In this document: positions 1 through 14,760 of the stretch, piece after piece
How positions within the stretch are numbered: the first letter of the stretch is position 1
Layout: every line of letters starts with the position of its first letter
IMG/VR virus record: IMGVR_UViG_3300019378_001956
Length of the DNA stretch: 22,591 nucleotides
From: a virus
Strand: one strand, 5' to 3'
The notes under the pieces: model-generated
The model's input: only the letters and a program-made list of their open reading frames with translations
Database searches by the model: none
Told to the model about the DNA's origin: nothing
Program-made: the position numbers and the translations under genes

Positions 1-548
1 ACTATATATTCAATATTTAATCTAAGATAGTTCATTTTCACATAAGCAGGATTCGCTGACGTGTTCATTGGTAAATCAAAAGTAACCTTGACATCCGCCA
101 AATCCTCTGCGGTAAATTTTAAATCATCAAATTTAACATTATATGCTGTGAGAACATCTTTAGGTGGAGCATTACCTGGTGCAAACAAACCTAATGTAGG
201 TATGCTAATCACAGGTTGGCCGAATGATCCATGACCCATATTAGGATACGCAAATTTCGCATACTCATACTCAACCTGAATGCTTTTAATACGAGCATTA
301 GCTGGTATATTATCGAGTACATGGAAATTAGTGACTTCAATCTGTGAAGGCTTAAATTTACCACCATTAACCGAAGCGACGGCATACATATAACCTGCTC
401 CAGGGTCTTCATTACCCCAATGCCCATAAATGGTTGTATCATGTAATCCCTGAATATCCTCCATCTCACGATAGATACCAGTATTACCATTAACATTACG
501 CATTCCAGTGTTATTTTCCCATACTGGATATAATGTTACTCTAGCCAT
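1..548 (-). CDS. Tail-tip/baseplate-region protein, partial (runs off the left edge; absent from ORF track)
   Basis: Manually translated: ATG at 548 (8-nt overlap ATGGCTAG with the upstream stop), MARVTLYPVWENNTGMRNVNG...YVKMNYLRLNIEYI, open for 182 codons to the window edge; beta-strand-rich; follows the TMP and the 259-aa gene. Confidence 0.8.
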   Translation of the reverse strand, partial: MARVTLYPVWENNTGMRNVNGNTGIYREMEDIQGLHDTTIYGHWGNEDPGAGYMYAVASVNGGKFKPSQIEVTNFHVLDNIPANARIKSIQVEYEYAKFAYPNMGHGSFGQPVISIPTLGLFAPGNAPPKDVLTAYNVKFDDLKFTAEDLADVKVTFDLPMNTSANPAYVKMNYLRLNIEYI

Positions 549-1320
549 TTTTAACAAAACCTCCATAAGTTTGGTTAAATAGTAAACAGTTTAATTCCAT
601 ACTAAAGTAATCGTTTTTCAATATTCCAGATGTATTTGTGTATTGTCCTACACCATTTTTGAAATGGAATTCAACACTCACATACTTAGCATTGGACGGT
701 ATGTTAGTTGTTTGTACATTACAACGTCCACGATTGCCCGTTGCGACATTTGCAATATCAGTTATTTCTTTACTGGAAATATAATTATGGTTTTTATCGA
801 AATAAACAAATCCTACTTTAATGCTGCTGATATGTGGTGATGCTTCATAAGTAGTACTGAACAATATCCTTGTTGTACCAGATGGTATGGCTACACCTGT
901 ACCGTTTTGATGGATTAAAAGGTAAAATGGAGAGGTATTGTCCACCCCATTAACTAGATAATCATTTTTCACCACCAATTTATAACCATTAGTGAAATTT
1001 TGAATATTTGCAATAGATTCTATTGGATCAAATGTACTATCAAAATGCTCACAAACATAAAGAAAACCCCCTATAGCATCAATATCTGTTTCACTACAGT
1101 AAGCAATACTATCATTAAACTTATTAACTAAGTTCGGATTTTTTGTTAAAGCAAAAGAATAGACATCAAAATCCTCATATCCTTTTGATTGTGTGGGATT
1201 TAATGACACTTCACATTTATGGCTTTGAAAACCAATATCAGTTTCCAAATAACCATATTTGTAGCCGATAATATTACCATGAACACGGCATCTACCAGGG
1301 TTAACACTTATTTTCTCCAT
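541..1320 (-). CDS. Tail protein immediately downstream of TMP (candidate distal tail/Dit-like, with a beta-sandwich/CBM-like C-terminal half)
   Basis: 259 aa; GGAGG RBS inside the TMP 3' end; position directly after TMP; FVYFDKNHNYISS and IPSNAKYVSVEF segments resemble jelly-roll/CBM strands (pattern impression only). Confidence 0.6.
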   Translation of the reverse strand: MEKISVNPGRCRVHGNIIGYKYGYLETDIGFQSHKCEVSLNPTQSKGYEDFDVYSFALTKNPNLVNKFNDSIAYCSETDIDAIGGFLYVCEHFDSTFDPIESIANIQNFTNGYKLVVKNDYLVNGVDNTSPFYLLIHQNGTGVAIPSGTTRILFSTTYEASPHISSIKVGFVYFDKNHNYISSKEITDIANVATGNRGRCNVQTTNIPSNAKYVSVEFHFKNGVGQYTNTSGILKNDYFSMELNCLLFNQTYGGFVKNG

Positions 1321-1323
1321 TAT

Positions 1324-4300
1324 TTATGCACCTCCCATACGAGCTATACGTTTATCCCTTTTAATTAATGCATCAGCAATACGGTCAATCAATCTTTTAT
1401 CAGTGACTGATTCAGTTAATTCTTTGATTAATGCATCAGTATCAATATTTTCAACATTACCATCAACAGTAACATCCACTTTATGTTCTAATGTTAATTT
1501 AACCTCTTCAACATTACCCCTAGAATTATTATTGTCAAATAATCCTTCTAATGGATTGGAATGTGTACGTGGGGCAGATCTGCCTCCAGGAATATGAACA
1601 TTAATTGGACCTCCAGCAGATGGTGCCGGATGACTATAACTGCATGGACCAGCAGTCCAACCACCACGTTGCCTTAAAGCAGTTGTATCGAAAGTATAAC
1701 CATTAATAATAGCAGCACAATGACCAAAACCACCCCAATTCAAACCGCAATCAACATAACCACCATAACCACAGGTATTTGCAAGAGCCACCATTGCAGA
1801 AGCACCATCATAACAATTCCATGAACCCGCAGCAATAGCATTTTGCCAAGAGCCATGAGCATCACTATTGTAGTACAATTCATAAGGTATTGCACTAGCA
1901 ATTGCCGTAGCAATCCTAACAAAGGATTCCCAACTGATATGAGGTGTTCCACCTTCAAAGTCTTTAACACGGAAAGATAAACCAGTGTCAATATCACCAA
2001 CACCAGTATGTACTGCCGGCCCTTTCATTTGCCATTCACGAGCAGTCTGTTTAATATAAGCAATGTTTGGATCTGCAACAGCATCCCATCCACCAGCAAA
2101 ACAATTAGGACAGGCACCACGTTGAATCAAATCAATAAGATTTAAATTATCAGATGCAGTTTTATCCATATACTCCAAGGTTACAGGACTAACCAATCCA
2201 TTATCCATCGCTTTAACCGCAGTAATAGTGTAAGGCAATTGATTATCACGTCTTAAACTATTAGCCACACCACGAGTGATACGAGTCATAACCGCAGGGT
2301 CACGACCAACACGCCTTATAGTGGAAGGTGATCCAGTAGAATCACCACCAGCCCACTGTGATGGATTCTGCAATTTCCTGTAAAAAGTACCAATCGTAGA
2401 GGATAACTGGTCAAAGTAAGCAGTAGCTTCATTTTTAATCCTTGCAGCAGCACTTATTATACTGTCTGCCATTACCGCCCATGCAGACCTCATCTCTGAA
2501 GTGACTTTCATTGTTTCATTCAACATTAAAGCTAATTGCTGACGAGTAGTATTAGTAGCACTAGTCATAGCAGTCCTATGAGTTAATAACATAAGATTTA
2601 ACTGAGTACGTAGATTATTACTCATAGACAACAAATTCAAGTTCAAACCAGTACTAATATTCTGGAAAGTAGTTAAATCATTAGACTGAATTTGACCATA
2701 AGCAAGTTGATCCTGTAAAACCATATTCTGCAAAGTAGTCATCATCATTGTTGCTAATGCATCATAAGATTCACCAATCATAACATTAGTATCATCAGTC
2801 ATACCCATTGCAGAATCCAAACCACCAGACACACTAGATAAATCCATACTGGCTAAATCAACATTTTCTAACGGATTTTCATCCAAATCATAATAAGGCA
2901 TTAAATCATCAGTATCCAATGATAATTTCGGTTCACCAAATTTATCAACTATCTCTGCACCAACTTGCCTTGCATACTCACCAGCCGGCTTAATAGCATC
3001 CTTAATCTTTTGAACAGCATTTTTAAATTCATCAGTGATACTATTTTGAACAATACCTGGTGAATGTATACCCATAGCATTAAGTACACCATTAATAATT
3101 TCTTTACCAAAGTTTAATGCAGCAGCTATAGCCTGAGGTATAGCTTCACGAATACGATCAGGAACCTTAGTAAACTCAGTATAAATTTTACCAGGTAATT
3201 GTTGTACAGTAGTTGAAGCACTGTTAACCATTTCACCAGCTTTTTGCCTAGCAGTATTAACCCATTGACTACCAGCATTAATAATATTACAAGTAGTTTG
3301 AGCCAAATAACTAAAGAATCTACCAGGTAAACCACTAATATAATTAATAATACCATTAACAAAACCTGAAGCAGCATTAATTGCTGCACTTACAATTTGA
3401 CCTGCCCATTGGAAGACAAAATTAATAATCATTGTTAAAATTGTCATGTATGCAGTCATGATTAAATTCCAGATCATAGTCAACATTTGAGGTAAAGTAA
3501 TTTGACCACTAAGGAATGCCTGGAAAATATTAATAAGCTGAGATACTGCATTCCAGATTACCAATAAAATATTACTGAGTAAATTCCATGCCGGCATAAA
3601 CATTTCAACAAGATAAGTTACTATCTCCACGAAAATATCAATTAAAGGCCTAATAGCTTCCACAATAGGTGAAATAATACCACTTACAAAGCCGGCTATT
3701 GCATTGAATACTTCCTGGAACACTTCCCAAGTTTTCCTTAATGCTGGAACAATACCCGGACTACAACCCAAAAGAATACAAATGATTTTTCGTAATACAT
3801 CTACAACAAACATTACAGGATTAGTAACATAACCCAAGAATGATAAAAATGTATTAAATGCTCCTTGAACACCAGAAATAGCCCTAACAATAAACGCTAT
3901 TGTATCTCCTAATGCACCAAATGCGTCAATAATCATCCGGACAATATCAATCTTTGTTCCAGGAGGGAATAATTCTGTCCAAACTTGTTTAGCCCAATCA
4001 TACACGGGTTGTAATGCAGTACAAATATCATCCCAAGCCTGTTTTAAGTCCTTAAGGAAACCTTGAACATTAGGATTATTGATAAATGCAGCCCACAACC
4101 TTTTTACACCATCTGCAATGGCTTCAAACATTGTTCCAACATCTTTCCACCATCCAAAAGCAATACCTAACTCATAAACAGCAATAGCAATAGCTGCAAT
4201 AACTGCAACGATTGCCCACAATGGGGCTCCGGCTAAAGTAACACCACCAATTGCAGCAGCGGCTCCCCAAAGACTAGTGATAAATCCAGGCATAGCACTT

Positions 4301-5712
4301 ACAACCAATCCCCAGATTGTAGTTTCAGCAGCAGCCGCAGCACCAGCAAGTAATAGAATACCGAAAGCAACACCACCAATGAGTAAAGCACCTTGAGCCC
4401 AGCCATTATTCTGAATCCATTTTACCAAGTTAGTAAAACCATCAACTAAACCAATGATTAAAGGAGTAATAGGTACAAGTACACTTGCAATTAATTGACT
4501 TCCTGTAACAGTTAAAGCTGCCCATGCATCATCTAATGTAACAATTTCACTAGCCGTTTGAGTGAAACCCATATCATCTAAGGTTTTATTCATTGCTTGG
4601 AGTAATGATGTTTTATTATTTATATCTCCATCCCAGCCATTTTTCATGAGCATATCTTGAGAAATACCTAATTCCTGCAATCTACGGAATTGACCATCCA
4701 TTGCATCAGATACTGCAAGAATCGCATCTTCTTGAGTACGTCCTTCTTTGACGAAAGCAGATGACATTACAGCAGTTGTTTTAGTTAATTGCTCCATAGA
4801 TTGTTGAGGCAATTGTAATTTTACGCCCATTTCCAATGCCGATGCTGCTACAGCATTCATGTCAACTTTACGGAATTCATTTTGCATCTCCCGGACATGA
4901 CCTGTGAATTCTTGTAATCTTGGACCAGACATTCCTTCTAATCTTTGAGCAAATCTTTCAAAACTTGCTGTTGCATTGATGGATGCTCTTGCACCTTGAA
5001 CCATACTATTTACCAGGTCAAAACCTATCATTCCTACAGTCATACTTGCTGCAGATCGGAGGAATCCGAAACTGTTTCCTAGTTTTTTAGTACTATCTTC
5101 AGTTCCTTTAAAACTATTTTGAGTATTCCTTCCTGCATCCCCTGCAAGTAATAGTTTTTCTCTTAGTTGATCTGCATCCCTTGCTGCATCATCCAAACCA
5201 TTATTGGCTAGACTATCAAGAATCATTTTTAGTTCTTGACCTATACCTATTAAGATTACGATTATTGCTCTTAGCATTTCTGCGGTGGATACTGTTTGAT
5301 TCATTCCTGTACTTCCACCTATCGAGTCTAATGCATTGTCTAGTTGGTTTGCACTTCCTTTTGTTGCGTTAAGTGTAGTATCTAATAATTTGACATTACT
5401 TTCTACTTGATTAAAATTTGAGCCTGAGATTCTTTTCATTGAATTATTTAATACGTTTACATTACCTGCTATTAGTAATAGTCTTGATTGTAATTGTAAT
5501 GATTCTTGACTTACTTGTCTGAAGGGTAATGCATTTATTTTTGATAGATTTGTGCTTAATCTGTTTGCACCATTACTTGCAGTGTTGAAGTTGTTATTTA
5601 ATCCTAGAGCTAAATTTTTTACATTGGATAGTTGTGCTTCTACTTTTTCTATTATTGCAGTTGCACGGTCTTCTGCTCTTATGATAATGTCAATTTGTTG
5701 TTGAGATACCAT
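1324..5712 (-). CDS. Tape measure protein with C-terminal transglutaminase-like cysteine peptidase domain
   Basis: 1462 aa after the tail chaperones; N-terminal IDIIIRAEDRAT motif, Ala/Gly-rich helical core, hydrophobic segment and Trp/Phe-spaced amphipathic repeats; C-terminal NCYDGA...GHC...FDT (C1300, H1331, D1342); GGAGGT RBS upstream. Confidence 0.92.
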   Translation of the reverse strand: MVSQQQIDIIIRAEDRATAIIEKVEAQLSNVKNLALGLNNNFNTASNGANRLSTNLSKINALPFRQVSQESLQLQSRLLLIAGNVNVLNNSMKRISGSNFNQVESNVKLLDTTLNATKGSANQLDNALDSIGGSTGMNQTVSTAEMLRAIIVILIGIGQELKMILDSLANNGLDDAARDADQLREKLLLAGDAGRNTQNSFKGTEDSTKKLGNSFGFLRSAASMTVGMIGFDLVNSMVQGARASINATASFERFAQRLEGMSGPRLQEFTGHVREMQNEFRKVDMNAVAASALEMGVKLQLPQQSMEQLTKTTAVMSSAFVKEGRTQEDAILAVSDAMDGQFRRLQELGISQDMLMKNGWDGDINNKTSLLQAMNKTLDDMGFTQTASEIVTLDDAWAALTVTGSQLIASVLVPITPLIIGLVDGFTNLVKWIQNNGWAQGALLIGGVAFGILLLAGAAAAAETTIWGLVVSAMPGFITSLWGAAAAIGGVTLAGAPLWAIVAVIAAIAIAVYELGIAFGWWKDVGTMFEAIADGVKRLWAAFINNPNVQGFLKDLKQAWDDICTALQPVYDWAKQVWTELFPPGTKIDIVRMIIDAFGALGDTIAFIVRAISGVQGAFNTFLSFLGYVTNPVMFVVDVLRKIICILLGCSPGIVPALRKTWEVFQEVFNAIAGFVSGIISPIVEAIRPLIDIFVEIVTYLVEMFMPAWNLLSNILLVIWNAVSQLINIFQAFLSGQITLPQMLTMIWNLIMTAYMTILTMIINFVFQWAGQIVSAAINAASGFVNGIINYISGLPGRFFSYLAQTTCNIINAGSQWVNTARQKAGEMVNSASTTVQQLPGKIYTEFTKVPDRIREAIPQAIAAALNFGKEIINGVLNAMGIHSPGIVQNSITDEFKNAVQKIKDAIKPAGEYARQVGAEIVDKFGEPKLSLDTDDLMPYYDLDENPLENVDLASMDLSSVSGGLDSAMGMTDDTNVMIGESYDALATMMMTTLQNMVLQDQLAYGQIQSNDLTTFQNISTGLNLNLLSMSNNLRTQLNLMLLTHRTAMTSATNTTRQQLALMLNETMKVTSEMRSAWAVMADSIISAAARIKNEATAYFDQLSSTIGTFYRKLQNPSQWAGGDSTGSPSTIRRVGRDPAVMTRITRGVANSLRRDNQLPYTITAVKAMDNGLVSPVTLEYMDKTASDNLNLIDLIQRGACPNCFAGGWDAVADPNIAYIKQTAREWQMKGPAVHTGVGDIDTGLSFRVKDFEGGTPHISWESFVRIATAIASAIPYELYYNSDAHGSWQNAIAAGSWNCYDGASAMVALANTCGYGGYVDCGLNWGGFGHCAAIINGYTFDTTALRQRGGWTAGPCSYSHPAPSAGGPINVHIPGGRSAPRTHSNPLEGLFDNNNSRGNVEEVKLTLEHKVDVTVDGNVENIDTDALIKELTESVTDKRLIDRIADALIKRDKRIARMGGA

Positions 5713-5775: not shown

Positions 5776-5970
5776 TTATTTTTTCTTTGGTACTTTATTC
5801 ATCTCTTTATGTAGGTCTGCTCGACCTTTTGTGATAAATAATGTTTGAGCTAAGGTTAAATCGCCCAAGTTATCACATAAATGATATCCGCAGTAATCTA
5901 ACCATATTATATTTTTAGCTTCATTCGTCTTCAGGAAAGTCTTTAACTTCTTTTTCCAAGTCATCATCAT
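5776..5970 (-). CDS. Tail assembly chaperone extension (gpT-like), probably made by +1 frameshift from the upstream chaperone
   Basis: Overlaps the chaperone 3' end by 50 nt, lies directly upstream of TMP, is in the +1 frame and has no clear RBS. Confidence 0.7.
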   Translation of the reverse strand: MMMTWKKKLKTFLKTNEAKNIIWLDYCGYHLCDNLGDLTLAQTLFITKGRADLHKEMNKVPKKK

Positions 5971-6370
5971 CTAAACCAGATATAATTCTGACTTGATCAT
6001 AAATTTCATCAAAAACACGCCTGCCCATAGCCTCTACTTCATCACGAGTAAATGGATCATCTTTATAAACATCATTATCCAGACTTAAAAATACTGCCTC
6101 AATTTTAGCTTTAGCAGAAGCTTTTCCAGTTTCTTTTACATTGATTTTTGCTTGAGCTTCCATTTGAGATTGAATTTGTTTTCTTCTACTTCTATTTTTT
6201 GCTCTTTCAGTAGTGGTGTATTCCCCAATAGCTTCATTTTCTATTTCTTCTATTTTGTTCCATTCACCATTACTCAAAGGTCTTAAGGCGACAGTATCGT
6301 CTTTTGATTTGATATATCTTTCTTTAGTTTCATTTATTCCATTTAATATTTGGGATTTAGTTAACACCAT
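5921..6370 (-). CDS. Tail assembly chaperone (gpG-like)
   Basis: 149 aa, acidic and helical, between major tail protein and TMP; GGAGGT RBS upstream. Confidence 0.8.
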   Translation of the reverse strand: MVLTKSQILNGINETKERYIKSKDDTVALRPLSNGEWNKIEEIENEAIGEYTTTERAKNRSRRKQIQSQMEAQAKINVKETGKASAKAKIEAVFLSLDNDVYKDDPFTRDEVEAMGRRVFDEIYDQVRIISGLDDDDLEKEVKDFPEDE

Positions 6371-13116: not shown

Positions 13117-14760
13117 TTATAACAATTCCCAATGCGCAAGATATTCTGATTCCTCTTTAATAAGTTGTAAATCAATATTTTTATCCAACAAAACCTCATA
13201 TTCCCATCTTGTATATGTTACTCCTTCAATATATAATATTTTTGTTCCTTTAGAAATCACAATATAATTTACATAATCCCCATATTCTTCAGGTTTAACA
13301 TTTTCTGAAAGTGATGTTGATAAACAAGCATCAGAGTGATAGATTCCATCTTCAGCACGGTTAGACATAGGTTCTTTTTGTCTTCTAACAACGACCAAAT
13401 CTTCTTCTAAAACTTTGCCTTTTTCAAAAATATCATTTAATATTTTTAATGATTTATCAAAACTCATATAATATTGAGGGTGGTAAAATATTAGTTTTAA
13501 CCATTTAATAGAATATTCTTTCTTTATCTCATTTAATTTAGAATCGTCAATATTAGCTATTTTTCTTAAGTATTCATTCAATATGGAAAATCCCTTACCA
13601 GAATATAATTTAATAAATTTATATTCATCTTTTGTTAATTCATCCTTTGTGATACCATATTTTATTTCAAATGTAGTTCTAGCAGACTTAGTTTCTTCAA
13701 CACCATAAACTGTTTTATCACCTATTTTAACTGCTTTATTTTTATCTTTTTCAAAAGTTTCATGTAAATTATCAAGTTCAAATTTTGTGTAATCTATTTT
13801 TGAATTTTGTTTTTGGGGTTTAATTTTACTGGTTACTTTTTCACTGACGGATTTGATTTTTGATTTGACAGTTTTTACCGGTTTTTTAACAGAATTTGTA
13901 ACTTTATTAATCATATCATTATTATTTTTTGATTTATTTGATTTTTTGGATTTTCTAGTTTGAGTAGTACTTTTCTTACCTGAACCTCTAATGTCGGATG
14001 GGGGTCTGTTACTGTAGCTTAACCAGCATCGGCAATTGGCTACGTTTTCTGCTCCACCGTTTAAATCTCCAGGATACATCATCCTTGCAGGATAAGAACC
14101 ATAAATATCAAATGTTTCATCAATAGGGACAGATTCGATAAATTTAGCTTTATGCCAAACACGTGTACGTTTAGTACGGCCATTATTCCAAGATTTATAT
14201 TGGTATCCATCATAGATTGCTTTTATCCAGCTTAAGTTACATTCGTTAGTATGAAATGAGTCACGAATAATATTTTTTATTCTTTTTTGTGCATGTTCAC
14301 CATATTCGGATTTTAGCTTTTCTGTTAATTCAGCTTCAGAGAGATTACCTAAATTCTTAGTATTTATATAATCTTCAATTTTACCTTGTAAATTAGGTAT
14401 TTCTTCTCGAATACGATTACCTAGAATAAACTGATATCTATTTGATATGTTGGATACTGCTGCTTCAACTGCTTTTTCTGGAATTCCATAGCTAATACGT
14501 TTTGTATCATTTTTTAGGTTAGTGTCAATTATCTTCTCAACATTCCTGTTTACTGTTGATTTTTTTATTGGATCACTAGTTCCAGTTACAGCATCTTCAA
14601 TTACAGCATCGATTATTTTATCTTGAAAAGTAGCTGCTTGACTAGCTGCACGGTTAATATTTTTATACTTGTATTGCAAGTGTATATCATCTTTCAATAC
14701 AAGTACTTCATGTAATCTTTGTGCTTTTAAGGCATATTCTAGTATTTCTCTATTAGTCAT
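13117..14760 (-). CDS. MuF (SPP1 gp7-like) minor head protein fused to C-terminal VIP2-type ADP-ribosyltransferase
   Basis: MuF motifs (RVWH, VPIDETF, MMYPGD, ENVANCRC) to about aa 290; Lys-rich linker; ART motifs LYSGKGFSILNEYLRK, VVVR459, CLS481TS483 and E520-Y-E522-VLL. Confidence 0.88.
   Translation of the reverse strand: MTNREILEYALKAQRLHEVLVLKDDIHLQYKYKNINRAASQAATFQDKIIDAVIEDAVTGTSDPIKKSTVNRNVEKIIDTNLKNDTKRISYGIPEKAVEAAVSNISNRYQFILGNRIREEIPNLQGKIEDYINTKNLGNLSEAELTEKLKSEYGEHAQKRIKNIIRDSFHTNECNLSWIKAIYDGYQYKSWNNGRTKRTRVWHKAKFIESVPIDETFDIYGSYPARMMYPGDLNGGAENVANCRCWLSYSNRPPSDIRGSGKKSTTQTRKSKKSNKSKNNNDMINKVTNSVKKPVKTVKSKIKSVSEKVTSKIKPQKQNSKIDYTKFELDNLHETFEKDKNKAVKIGDKTVYGVEETKSARTTFEIKYGITKDELTKDEYKFIKLYSGKGFSILNEYLRKIANIDDSKLNEIKKEYSIKWLKLIFYHPQYYMSFDKSLKILNDIFEKGKVLEEDLVVVRRQKEPMSNRAEDGIYHSDACLSTSLSENVKPEEYGDYVNYIVISKGTKILYIEGVTYTRWEYEVLLDKNIDLQLIKEESEYLAHWELL

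Follow-up and report, generated by a model that had tools for sequence, protein, structure and literature searches.

How does a tailed virus carry its DNA through the wall of a methanogen? Passage of archaeal viruses across the host envelope is largely unknown. A 2024 review of how archaeal viruses enter their hosts poses the question of whether enzymatic activities occur in further archaeal virions, and it lists pseudomurein-degrading enzymes only as egress endolysins (PMC10791045). The DNA analyzed here, a 22,591-nucleotide stretch from the IMG/VR virus record IMGVR_UViG_3300019378_001956 (hereafter the window), offers a candidate answer at the end of its tail tape measure protein (TMP) gene. 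The C-terminal part of this protein carries a conserved domain with the fold of transglutaminase-like cysteine peptidases and with remote homology to PeiW and PeiP, the pseudomurein endoisopeptidases of the Methanothermobacter (pro)viruses psiM100 and psiM2 (MEROPS C71, PF12386; PDB 8jx4, 8z4f), whose target is the ε(Ala)-Lys isopeptide bond of pseudomurein. Judging from sequence, structure prediction and analogy, we put at roughly 0.6 the probability that the domain is a virion-borne entry lysin for pseudomurein, a counterpart of the C-terminal muralytic domain of the bacteriophage T5 tape measure protein, pb2. The parts of the gene on which the argument depends are these:

1324..5712, minus strand: tail tape measure protein gene, 1462 aa plus stop (PHROG TMP profiles and gene order)
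1621..2088, minus strand: transglutaminase-like Cys-His-Asp peptidase domain, aa 1209-1364 (AlphaFold2 (AF2) model, structure and profile matches)
1813..1815, minus strand: codon of Cys1300, the predicted nucleophile, in the NC-x-D motif (invariant; aligned to the NCTD cysteine of PeiW and PeiP)
1720..1722, minus strand: codon of His1331, the predicted general base, in the GH motif (invariant; aligned to the GH of PeiW and PeiP)
1687..1689, minus strand: codon of Asp1342, the predicted third triad residue, in the D-T-T motif (invariant; aligned to an Asp of PeiW)
1513..1620, minus strand: Pro/Gly-rich linker, aa 1365-1400 (predicted local distance difference test (pLDDT) score 35-53, no secondary structure)
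1327..1512, minus strand: charged C-terminal tail, aa 1401-1462, the probable tail-tip anchoring end (similar length in homologues; analogy to T5 pb2)

The identity of the protein as a TMP is clear. It matches phrog_58 (E 4.5e-30) and five further TMP PHROGs (range E 4.5e-30 to 5e-9), as well as phrog_38386 (E 9e-162), and its gene follows those for the tail tube and tail chaperone and precedes the distal tail genes. The initial annotation had described the last ~260 residues as a switch from helical TMP composition to one Gly/Trp/Cys-rich globular domain. The switch is real: aa 1200-1400 contain 13.9% Gly and 3.5% each of Cys, His and Trp, against 4.8-8.1% Gly, 0-1% Cys and 0-1.6% His in the other four segments of the protein. 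Tryptophan is also high in the hydrophobic middle (3.9%) but below 1% in the remaining three segments. The single domain did not hold up, as the folded part spans only aa ~1209-1364 and is followed by the linker and the charged tail. Within the folded part, translation of 1324-5712 gives NCYDGA at 1299-1304, GHCAA from 1330 and FDTT from 1341, which places the proposed triad residues exactly where they had been assigned (NC1300YDGA, GH1331C, FD1342T).

The triad is under strict conservation, well beyond what chance would give. A HMMER scan of a full database of 1.84 billion representative proteins recovered 207 clusters (50% identity) at E<=1e-3, 131 of them at E<=1e-10. In nearly all homologues the match lies near the C-terminus of a TMP-like protein of 1200-2400 aa. 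Six residues (Cys1300, His1331, Asp1342, Asn1299, Tyr1277 and Tyr1280) are kept without exception (100%) across the 162 sequences aligned, even though pairwise identity among the domain homologues falls to ~35%. The domain could in principle be a catalytically dead structural or wall-binding module, which is a general possibility for fused enzyme-like domains and has nothing specific in its favor here. The invariance of the triad and its flanking Asn and Tyr residues at such divergence would not be expected of a decayed or merely structural module, and makes this explanation very improbable. Between the Asp and the C-terminus lie 27-144 aa in the 147 long homologues compared, with a median of 99. 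The tail that follows the domain thus keeps a similar length in homologues while its sequence is poorly conserved, and by analogy with T5 pb2 it is probably the end that anchors at the tail tip.

The predicted structure places these residues in a recognizable arrangement. Over the whole AF2 model the mean pLDDT is 74, rising to 84 over model residues 21-170 (block means 75-94) and to 85-94 over the catalytic core. The Cys (model residue 106) opens helix 106-119, His137 is part of strand 135-142 and Asp148 directly follows strand 145-147. In the model, then, the Cys starts a helix and the His and Asp lie on the next β-hairpin, which is the papain/transglutaminase arrangement, here judged from secondary-structure placement. 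Structure searches agree with the fold class that had been proposed from the Cys-His-Asp order. Foldseek returned PeiP as best match, with probability 1.00 to both PeiP and 3isr. An unbiased scan of 48,161 PDB representative chains gave TglA (Z 8.3), PeiW (Z 7.9; root-mean-square deviation 2.6 Å over 100 of 148 residues), PeiP (Z 7.4) and LapG (Z 7.2). Of the 31 matches that rank next, 30 likewise have a transglutaminase-, NAT- or papain-like fold, and the top 30 all belong to this fold class (Z 8.3 to 4.5). One feature departs from canonical members. The hairpin between His and Asp is four residues shorter (H+11 versus H+15; 11 residues against ~15 in Pei), yet the Asp keeps its register relative to the His and still stands in a D-x-T motif, which takes the position that D-P-T has in Transglut_core members.

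The structural neighbors also raise two other explanations. First, the domain could be a protease directed at proteins, active during assembly or ejection, whose substrate is the TMP itself or another tail protein and not the wall; it might, for example, free a C-terminal piece. Protein-cleaving LapG and TglA are among the top neighbors, and TMPs are commonly processed near the C-terminus, as in T5 (PMC10038345). The sequence relatives and the host distribution described below speak against this explanation, and we consider it unlikely. Second, the domain could be an effector ejected into the host cell, a deamidase, acyl transferase or protease directed against host or defense proteins. The TMP leaves ahead of the DNA, the fold family includes the injected bacterial effectors SseI, RavJ and Ceg10, and the same virus packages another enzyme, a MuF-ADP-ribosyltransferase. 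However, the effectors score far lower (Z 3.6-5.0) than PeiW and PeiP do, sequence-profile matches are only to wall-associated families, and such a role for a TMP domain was not met in the literature surveyed. An effector function is therefore quite improbable.

Sequence profiles narrow the relationship further. A profile of the domain searched against the PDB matched PeiW (8jx4, E 3.3e-4) and PeiP (8z4f, E 2.4e-3) and no other peptidases, so that the Pei relationship suggested by the initial annotation is borne out by both structure and profile. The motifs Y-x-F-YYN, NC-x-D and GH are aligned in PeiW and PeiP, and the Asp is aligned in PeiW. An hhalign comparison with a 121-sequence Pei alignment gave a probability of 95.3% (E 2.4e-8). 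Profiles were needed for this result; a single-sequence search of the PDB returned an endo-beta-1,2-glucanase (E 0.26), a match that we judged spurious.

Membership in the Peptidase_C71 family is a different matter. It had been proposed that the domain be compared with Peptidase_C71 and transglutaminase-like families, and profile homology to both was found while the Pfam cut-offs were not reached. As a single sequence the domain scores 16.8 bits against Transglut_core (PF01841), under the 23-bit cut-off, and the 1462-aa protein has no match to Peptidase_C71 (PF12386; gathering cut-off 22 bits) at E<=1. A 99%-identical genomic copy of the domain was likewise missed by a Peptidase_C71 family search at E<=0.01. 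Among 27 relatives, 18 match PF01841 (best E 5.8e-6) and four match PF12386 (best E 0.0012). Pseudomurein-binding repeats (PMBR, PF09373) have no match anywhere in the 1462-aa protein; the Pei of the virus MSTV1 also lacks them, so these repeats are not a constant feature of Pei. By fold, triad and profile homology we assign the domain to the transglutaminase-like superfamily. Because it falls under the C71 threshold and carries no PMBR, we describe it as working like Pei, meaning remote homology and likely function, and not as a member of Peptidase_C71.

The likeness to PeiW and PeiP thus covers the transglutaminase-like fold, the Cys-His-Asp order, the motifs Y-x-[FY]-YYN, NC-x-D and GH, a cysteine nucleophile, and a source in viruses of pseudomurein-walled methanogens. 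The two differ in that the TMP domain is only ~15% identical to the Pei enzymes and is fused to a tail protein, presumably for entry, whereas Pei is a free late-gene endolysin used for egress.

By profile comparison, certain cellular proteins stand nearer to the domain than the viral Pei endolysins do. The best profile match of all (hhalign 98.1%, E 6.6e-14) is to Methanobrevibacter proteins that combine PMBR with a C-terminal Transglut_core domain. These are encoded at five cellular loci (L007, L011, L012, L013 and L014, in Methanobrevibacter genomes G001-G003) in open frames of ~870-1500 aa, and they have the motifs Y-E-F-YYD, NC-x-D-x-A, GH and D-x-T in common with the TMP domain. Pfam confirms PMBR and PF01841 for L007 and L012, with PF01841 scores of 82-90 bits, far above that of the TMP domain, and with Ig-like domains in one of these two scanned proteins (L012). 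L007 and L013 exceed the Peptidase_C71 cut-off. Such matches from the Peptidase_C71 genome search were first taken for TMPs, a reading that we rejected once their domain composition was clear. A conserved open reading frame of ~255 aa follows three of the five loci (L007, L011 and L013). The cellular proteins may be autolysins or cross-linkers. As far as sequence comparison goes, both families detectably related to the TMP domain are wall-associated and specific to pseudomurein-bearing methanogens.

These cellular relatives bear on a further alternative, namely that the domain acts on the envelope and is not a pseudomurein hydrolase. It could cut a surface or S-layer-type protein or an adhesin, or it could cross-link the tail tip to wall peptides. 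Transglutaminase-fold enzymes both form and cleave isopeptides, and the closest cellular relatives could be wall-building rather than wall-cutting. But entry needs a hole and not a cross-link, and homology to Pei favors cleavage, the Pei enzymes being hydrolases that need reducing conditions (PMC2989375). We regard this alternative as improbable. If the domain is indeed an entry lysin, its cysteine nucleophile suits the reducing habitat of the gut and rumen.

The distribution of the domain correlates with the host. When aa 300-1150, the TMP body, were searched by tblastn against 50,697 phage records, homologues (annotated TMPs) turned up in 98 records, 91 of which are bacterial phages (for example of Mycobacterium, Staphylococcus and Clostridium). 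The C-terminal domain matches only 7 Methanobacteriales-virus records (MSTV1, vir075, PhiF3, vir249 and Drs3). It also occurs in 29 of 328 species genomes (~9%) of the host order; of its 31 matches there, 28 fall in open frames 1197 aa or longer, and the named carriers are Methanobrevibacter. Processing of the TMP or other tail proteins gives no reason for confinement to Methanobacteriales viruses, the homologous TMP bodies in the 91 bacterial-phage records have no match to the domain, and the detected sequence relatives are pseudomurein-binding or pseudomurein-cleaving proteins. Four bacterial TMP homologues (two from Staphylococcus, one each from Mycobacterium and Clostridium) have no enzymatic domain. 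A module swap, with a murein hydrolase at the same place in the bacterial homologues, was looked for in these four and rejected; the hydrolase of phiIPLA7 is encoded by a separate tail gene.

The host of the virus can be named with some precision. The TMP agrees in every residue (100%) with a 'phage-related protein' from a Methanobrevibacter millerae metagenome-assembled genome (MAG; contig SUTE01000061), which confirms and sharpens the Methanobacteriales host suggested earlier. One carrier in the public records is labeled 'Lachnospiraceae bacterium' (MDR1018671.1), and we rejected it as evidence for a bacterial host. Its 43.5-kb contig (JGI 3300042599 Ga0466706_220433; L017/L018) encodes a TMP with the same domain, has 30% GC, carries an MCM helicase and an ERCC4 nuclease, and has a capsid protein whose best match is MSTV1. 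These features suggest that an archaeal virus was probably binned by mistake with a bacterial MAG. The last gene of this contig encodes a 1329-aa protein with a weak intein-splicing match. Elsewhere in the public records the domain-bearing gene is labeled 'tape measure', 'hypothetical' or, in Drs3, 'prominin'. This last label, given to the TMP of Methanobacterium virus Drs3 (MH674343.1 / NC_062738.1, 25655-27889) in both GenBank and RefSeq, was probably caused by weak Pfam Prominin matches on hydrophobic or coiled regions of TMPs, which were also seen in other TMPs scanned here.

Could the domain be the lysis enzyme of the virus? Relatives encode their own endolysins, which argues that it is not. 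MSTV1, whose host is cultivable, has the TMP domain (35% identical to that of the window) plus a separate PeiW-like endolysin, and vir075 has a separate PeiR endolysin. PeiR-type (Peptidase_C39-like) endolysins are, like the presumed TMP enzyme, pseudomurein-directed cysteine peptidases of the same rumen Methanobrevibacter virus group. They differ in belonging to another fold family, in being encoded by a separate late gene and in having no detectable similarity to the TMP domain. In the provirus with the 99%-identical TMP domain, the last gene (L015:6935-8062, minus strand; G001:C91) encodes a 376-aa protein with a C39-like CGP...GHY signature at its C-terminus, an Ig-like domain (Big_3_5/CarboxypepD_reg, aa 128-185) and weak endolysin PHROG matches. 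A Pfam scan of the 376-aa protein gave no peptidase match. Its sequence features make it a candidate for a divergent pseudomurein endolysin of the PeiR/C39-like kind. Cellular genes (PTH2, an amino-acid kinase and MarR) come directly after it and mark the end of the provirus. The contig of the window itself stops short of the endolysin position.

The C-terminal muralytic domain of T5 pb2 was reportedly described by Boulanger et al. in 2008. In pb2, a hydrophobic stretch is followed by a C-terminal muralytic metallopeptidase at the tail tip, which leaves the tail first and has been proposed to break down peptidoglycan locally; at the tip plug the C-terminal residues are arranged as a trimer, and pb2 is cut after R1127 (Linares et al. 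2023, PMC10038345). Muralytic domains carried by bacterial TMPs, the precedent on which the initial annotation drew, are thus real. The TMP encoded in the window resembles pb2 in architecture, as a long helical TMP with hydrophobic segments, a C-terminal peptidase and a short tip end, and presumably in the logic of expelling the enzyme first. The enzymatic domains are not homologous. That of T5 is a zinc metallopeptidase acting on bacterial murein, whereas ours is a Cys-His-Asp domain whose presumed substrate is archaeal pseudomurein.

With this precedent, an entry mechanism can be proposed. The domain would be an active transglutaminase-fold cysteine peptidase, using Cys1300, His1331 and Asp1342, in the C-terminal part of the TMP of a Methanobrevibacter siphovirus or provirus. 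Inside the tail lumen, the packed TMP would have its end at the tip. The peptidase would be the first part to leave as the tail opens on the host cell, and once on the wall it would locally cut peptide cross-links or stems of the pseudomurein. The opening in the wall would then let the hydrophobic TMP segments insert in the membrane as a conduit through which the DNA passes. Lysis at the end of infection would be left to the separate endolysin.

Several points weigh against an entry lysin. The structural Z scores of 7-8 are middling, and the mean pLDDT of 74 is only modest. The transglutaminase fold is also found in protein-directed proteases (LapG and TglA), deamidases and acyl transferases, and since the fold hosts several activities it does not fix the substrate. 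The sub-threshold Pfam results above belong here as well. The comparison behind the host restriction lacks a profile-level outgroup of archaea without pseudomurein, the phylum-wide and order-wide genome sets being nearly the same (329 versus 328 genomes). Three copies of a globular domain of ~160 aa would need unfolding or compaction inside the tail lumen. Finally, we infer the catalytic activity, the pseudomurein substrate, the bond cut, the location in the virion, the timing and any proteolytic release.

A virion lysin borne on a TMP is known; what would differ here is the fold, the wall polymer and the domain of life. We searched the full-text literature, including the MSTV1 paper, a human-gut archaeal virome survey, an archaeal virus entry/egress review and a viral lytic protein survey (with Medvedeva et al. 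2023 and the MSTV1 supplements outside this scope), and found no published description of a peptidase on such TMPs. The chances seem about even that this is the first recognized virion-associated cell-wall lysin of an archaeal tailed virus, a TMP-borne pseudomurein-cutting family of 207 clusters. That family may have been captured from cellular PMBR-transglutaminase enzymes, and its bond specificity may be unlike that of PeiW, PeiP and PeiR.

There are several ways in which such a family would matter. First, a Pei-related peptidase that is conserved, apparently active and located where the TMP ends at the tip is a candidate entry mechanism that can be assayed, for viruses of Methanobrevibacter, Methanobacterium and Methanothermobacter. 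Second, if it acts as we propose, it would explain how tailed viruses cross a thick pseudomurein wall, and it would extend the bacterial principle of the TMP-borne lysin to a second domain of life, whose wall has a different chemistry. Third, it would provide new 'lysis-from-without' enzymes against gut and rumen methanogens. Enzymes that evolved to act on intact cells from outside would be attractive for methanogen lysis, both in DNA and protoplast work and in methane mitigation, and the family is large and diverse.

The window as a whole is a minus-strand block of virus structural genes, encoding terminase, portal, MuF-ADP-ribosyltransferase, prohead protease, capsid, connectors, tail tube, chaperone and TMP. 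The remaining features near or within the TMP gene are these:

5776..6370, minus strand: tail assembly chaperone genes, directly upstream of the TMP gene (phrog_344, E 6.9e-9)
4147..4509, minus strand: hydrophobic Gly/Ala-rich segments, aa 402-522 of the TMP, candidate membrane-inserting segments (Kyte-Doolittle 19-residue windows 2.0-2.5)
3409..3849, minus strand: second hydrophobic TMP region, aa 622-768 (hydropathy windows 1.6-2.0)
541..1320, minus strand: downstream 259-aa tail gene, in the position of a distal tail component (gene order)

The 259-aa gene at 541..1320 has no Pfam or PHROG match. It is kept beside the TMP gene in relatives, with a length of 259 aa in G001 and 273 aa in the 'Lachnospiraceae'-binned contig (L017). 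The order 3′ of the TMP gene is common to the source contig and the 99%-identical provirus, with genes for proteins of 259 aa, ~940 aa and ~838 aa followed by a fiber protein; the ~940-aa tail protein has a weak match to a Dit PHROG.

The total length of the TMP varies (1462, 1471, 1484, 1573 and 1576 aa) among proteins whose C-terminal domains are 99-100% identical. This suggests, at the level of sequence, that the TMP body has undergone recent insertions or deletions, so that near-identical proviruses would be polymorphic in tail length. In the head module, the protein encoded at 13117-14760 (minus strand) has a C-terminal ADP-ribosyltransferase exoenzyme domain (PF03496, E 7.7e-10) and is a second virion-packaged enzyme of the same virus.

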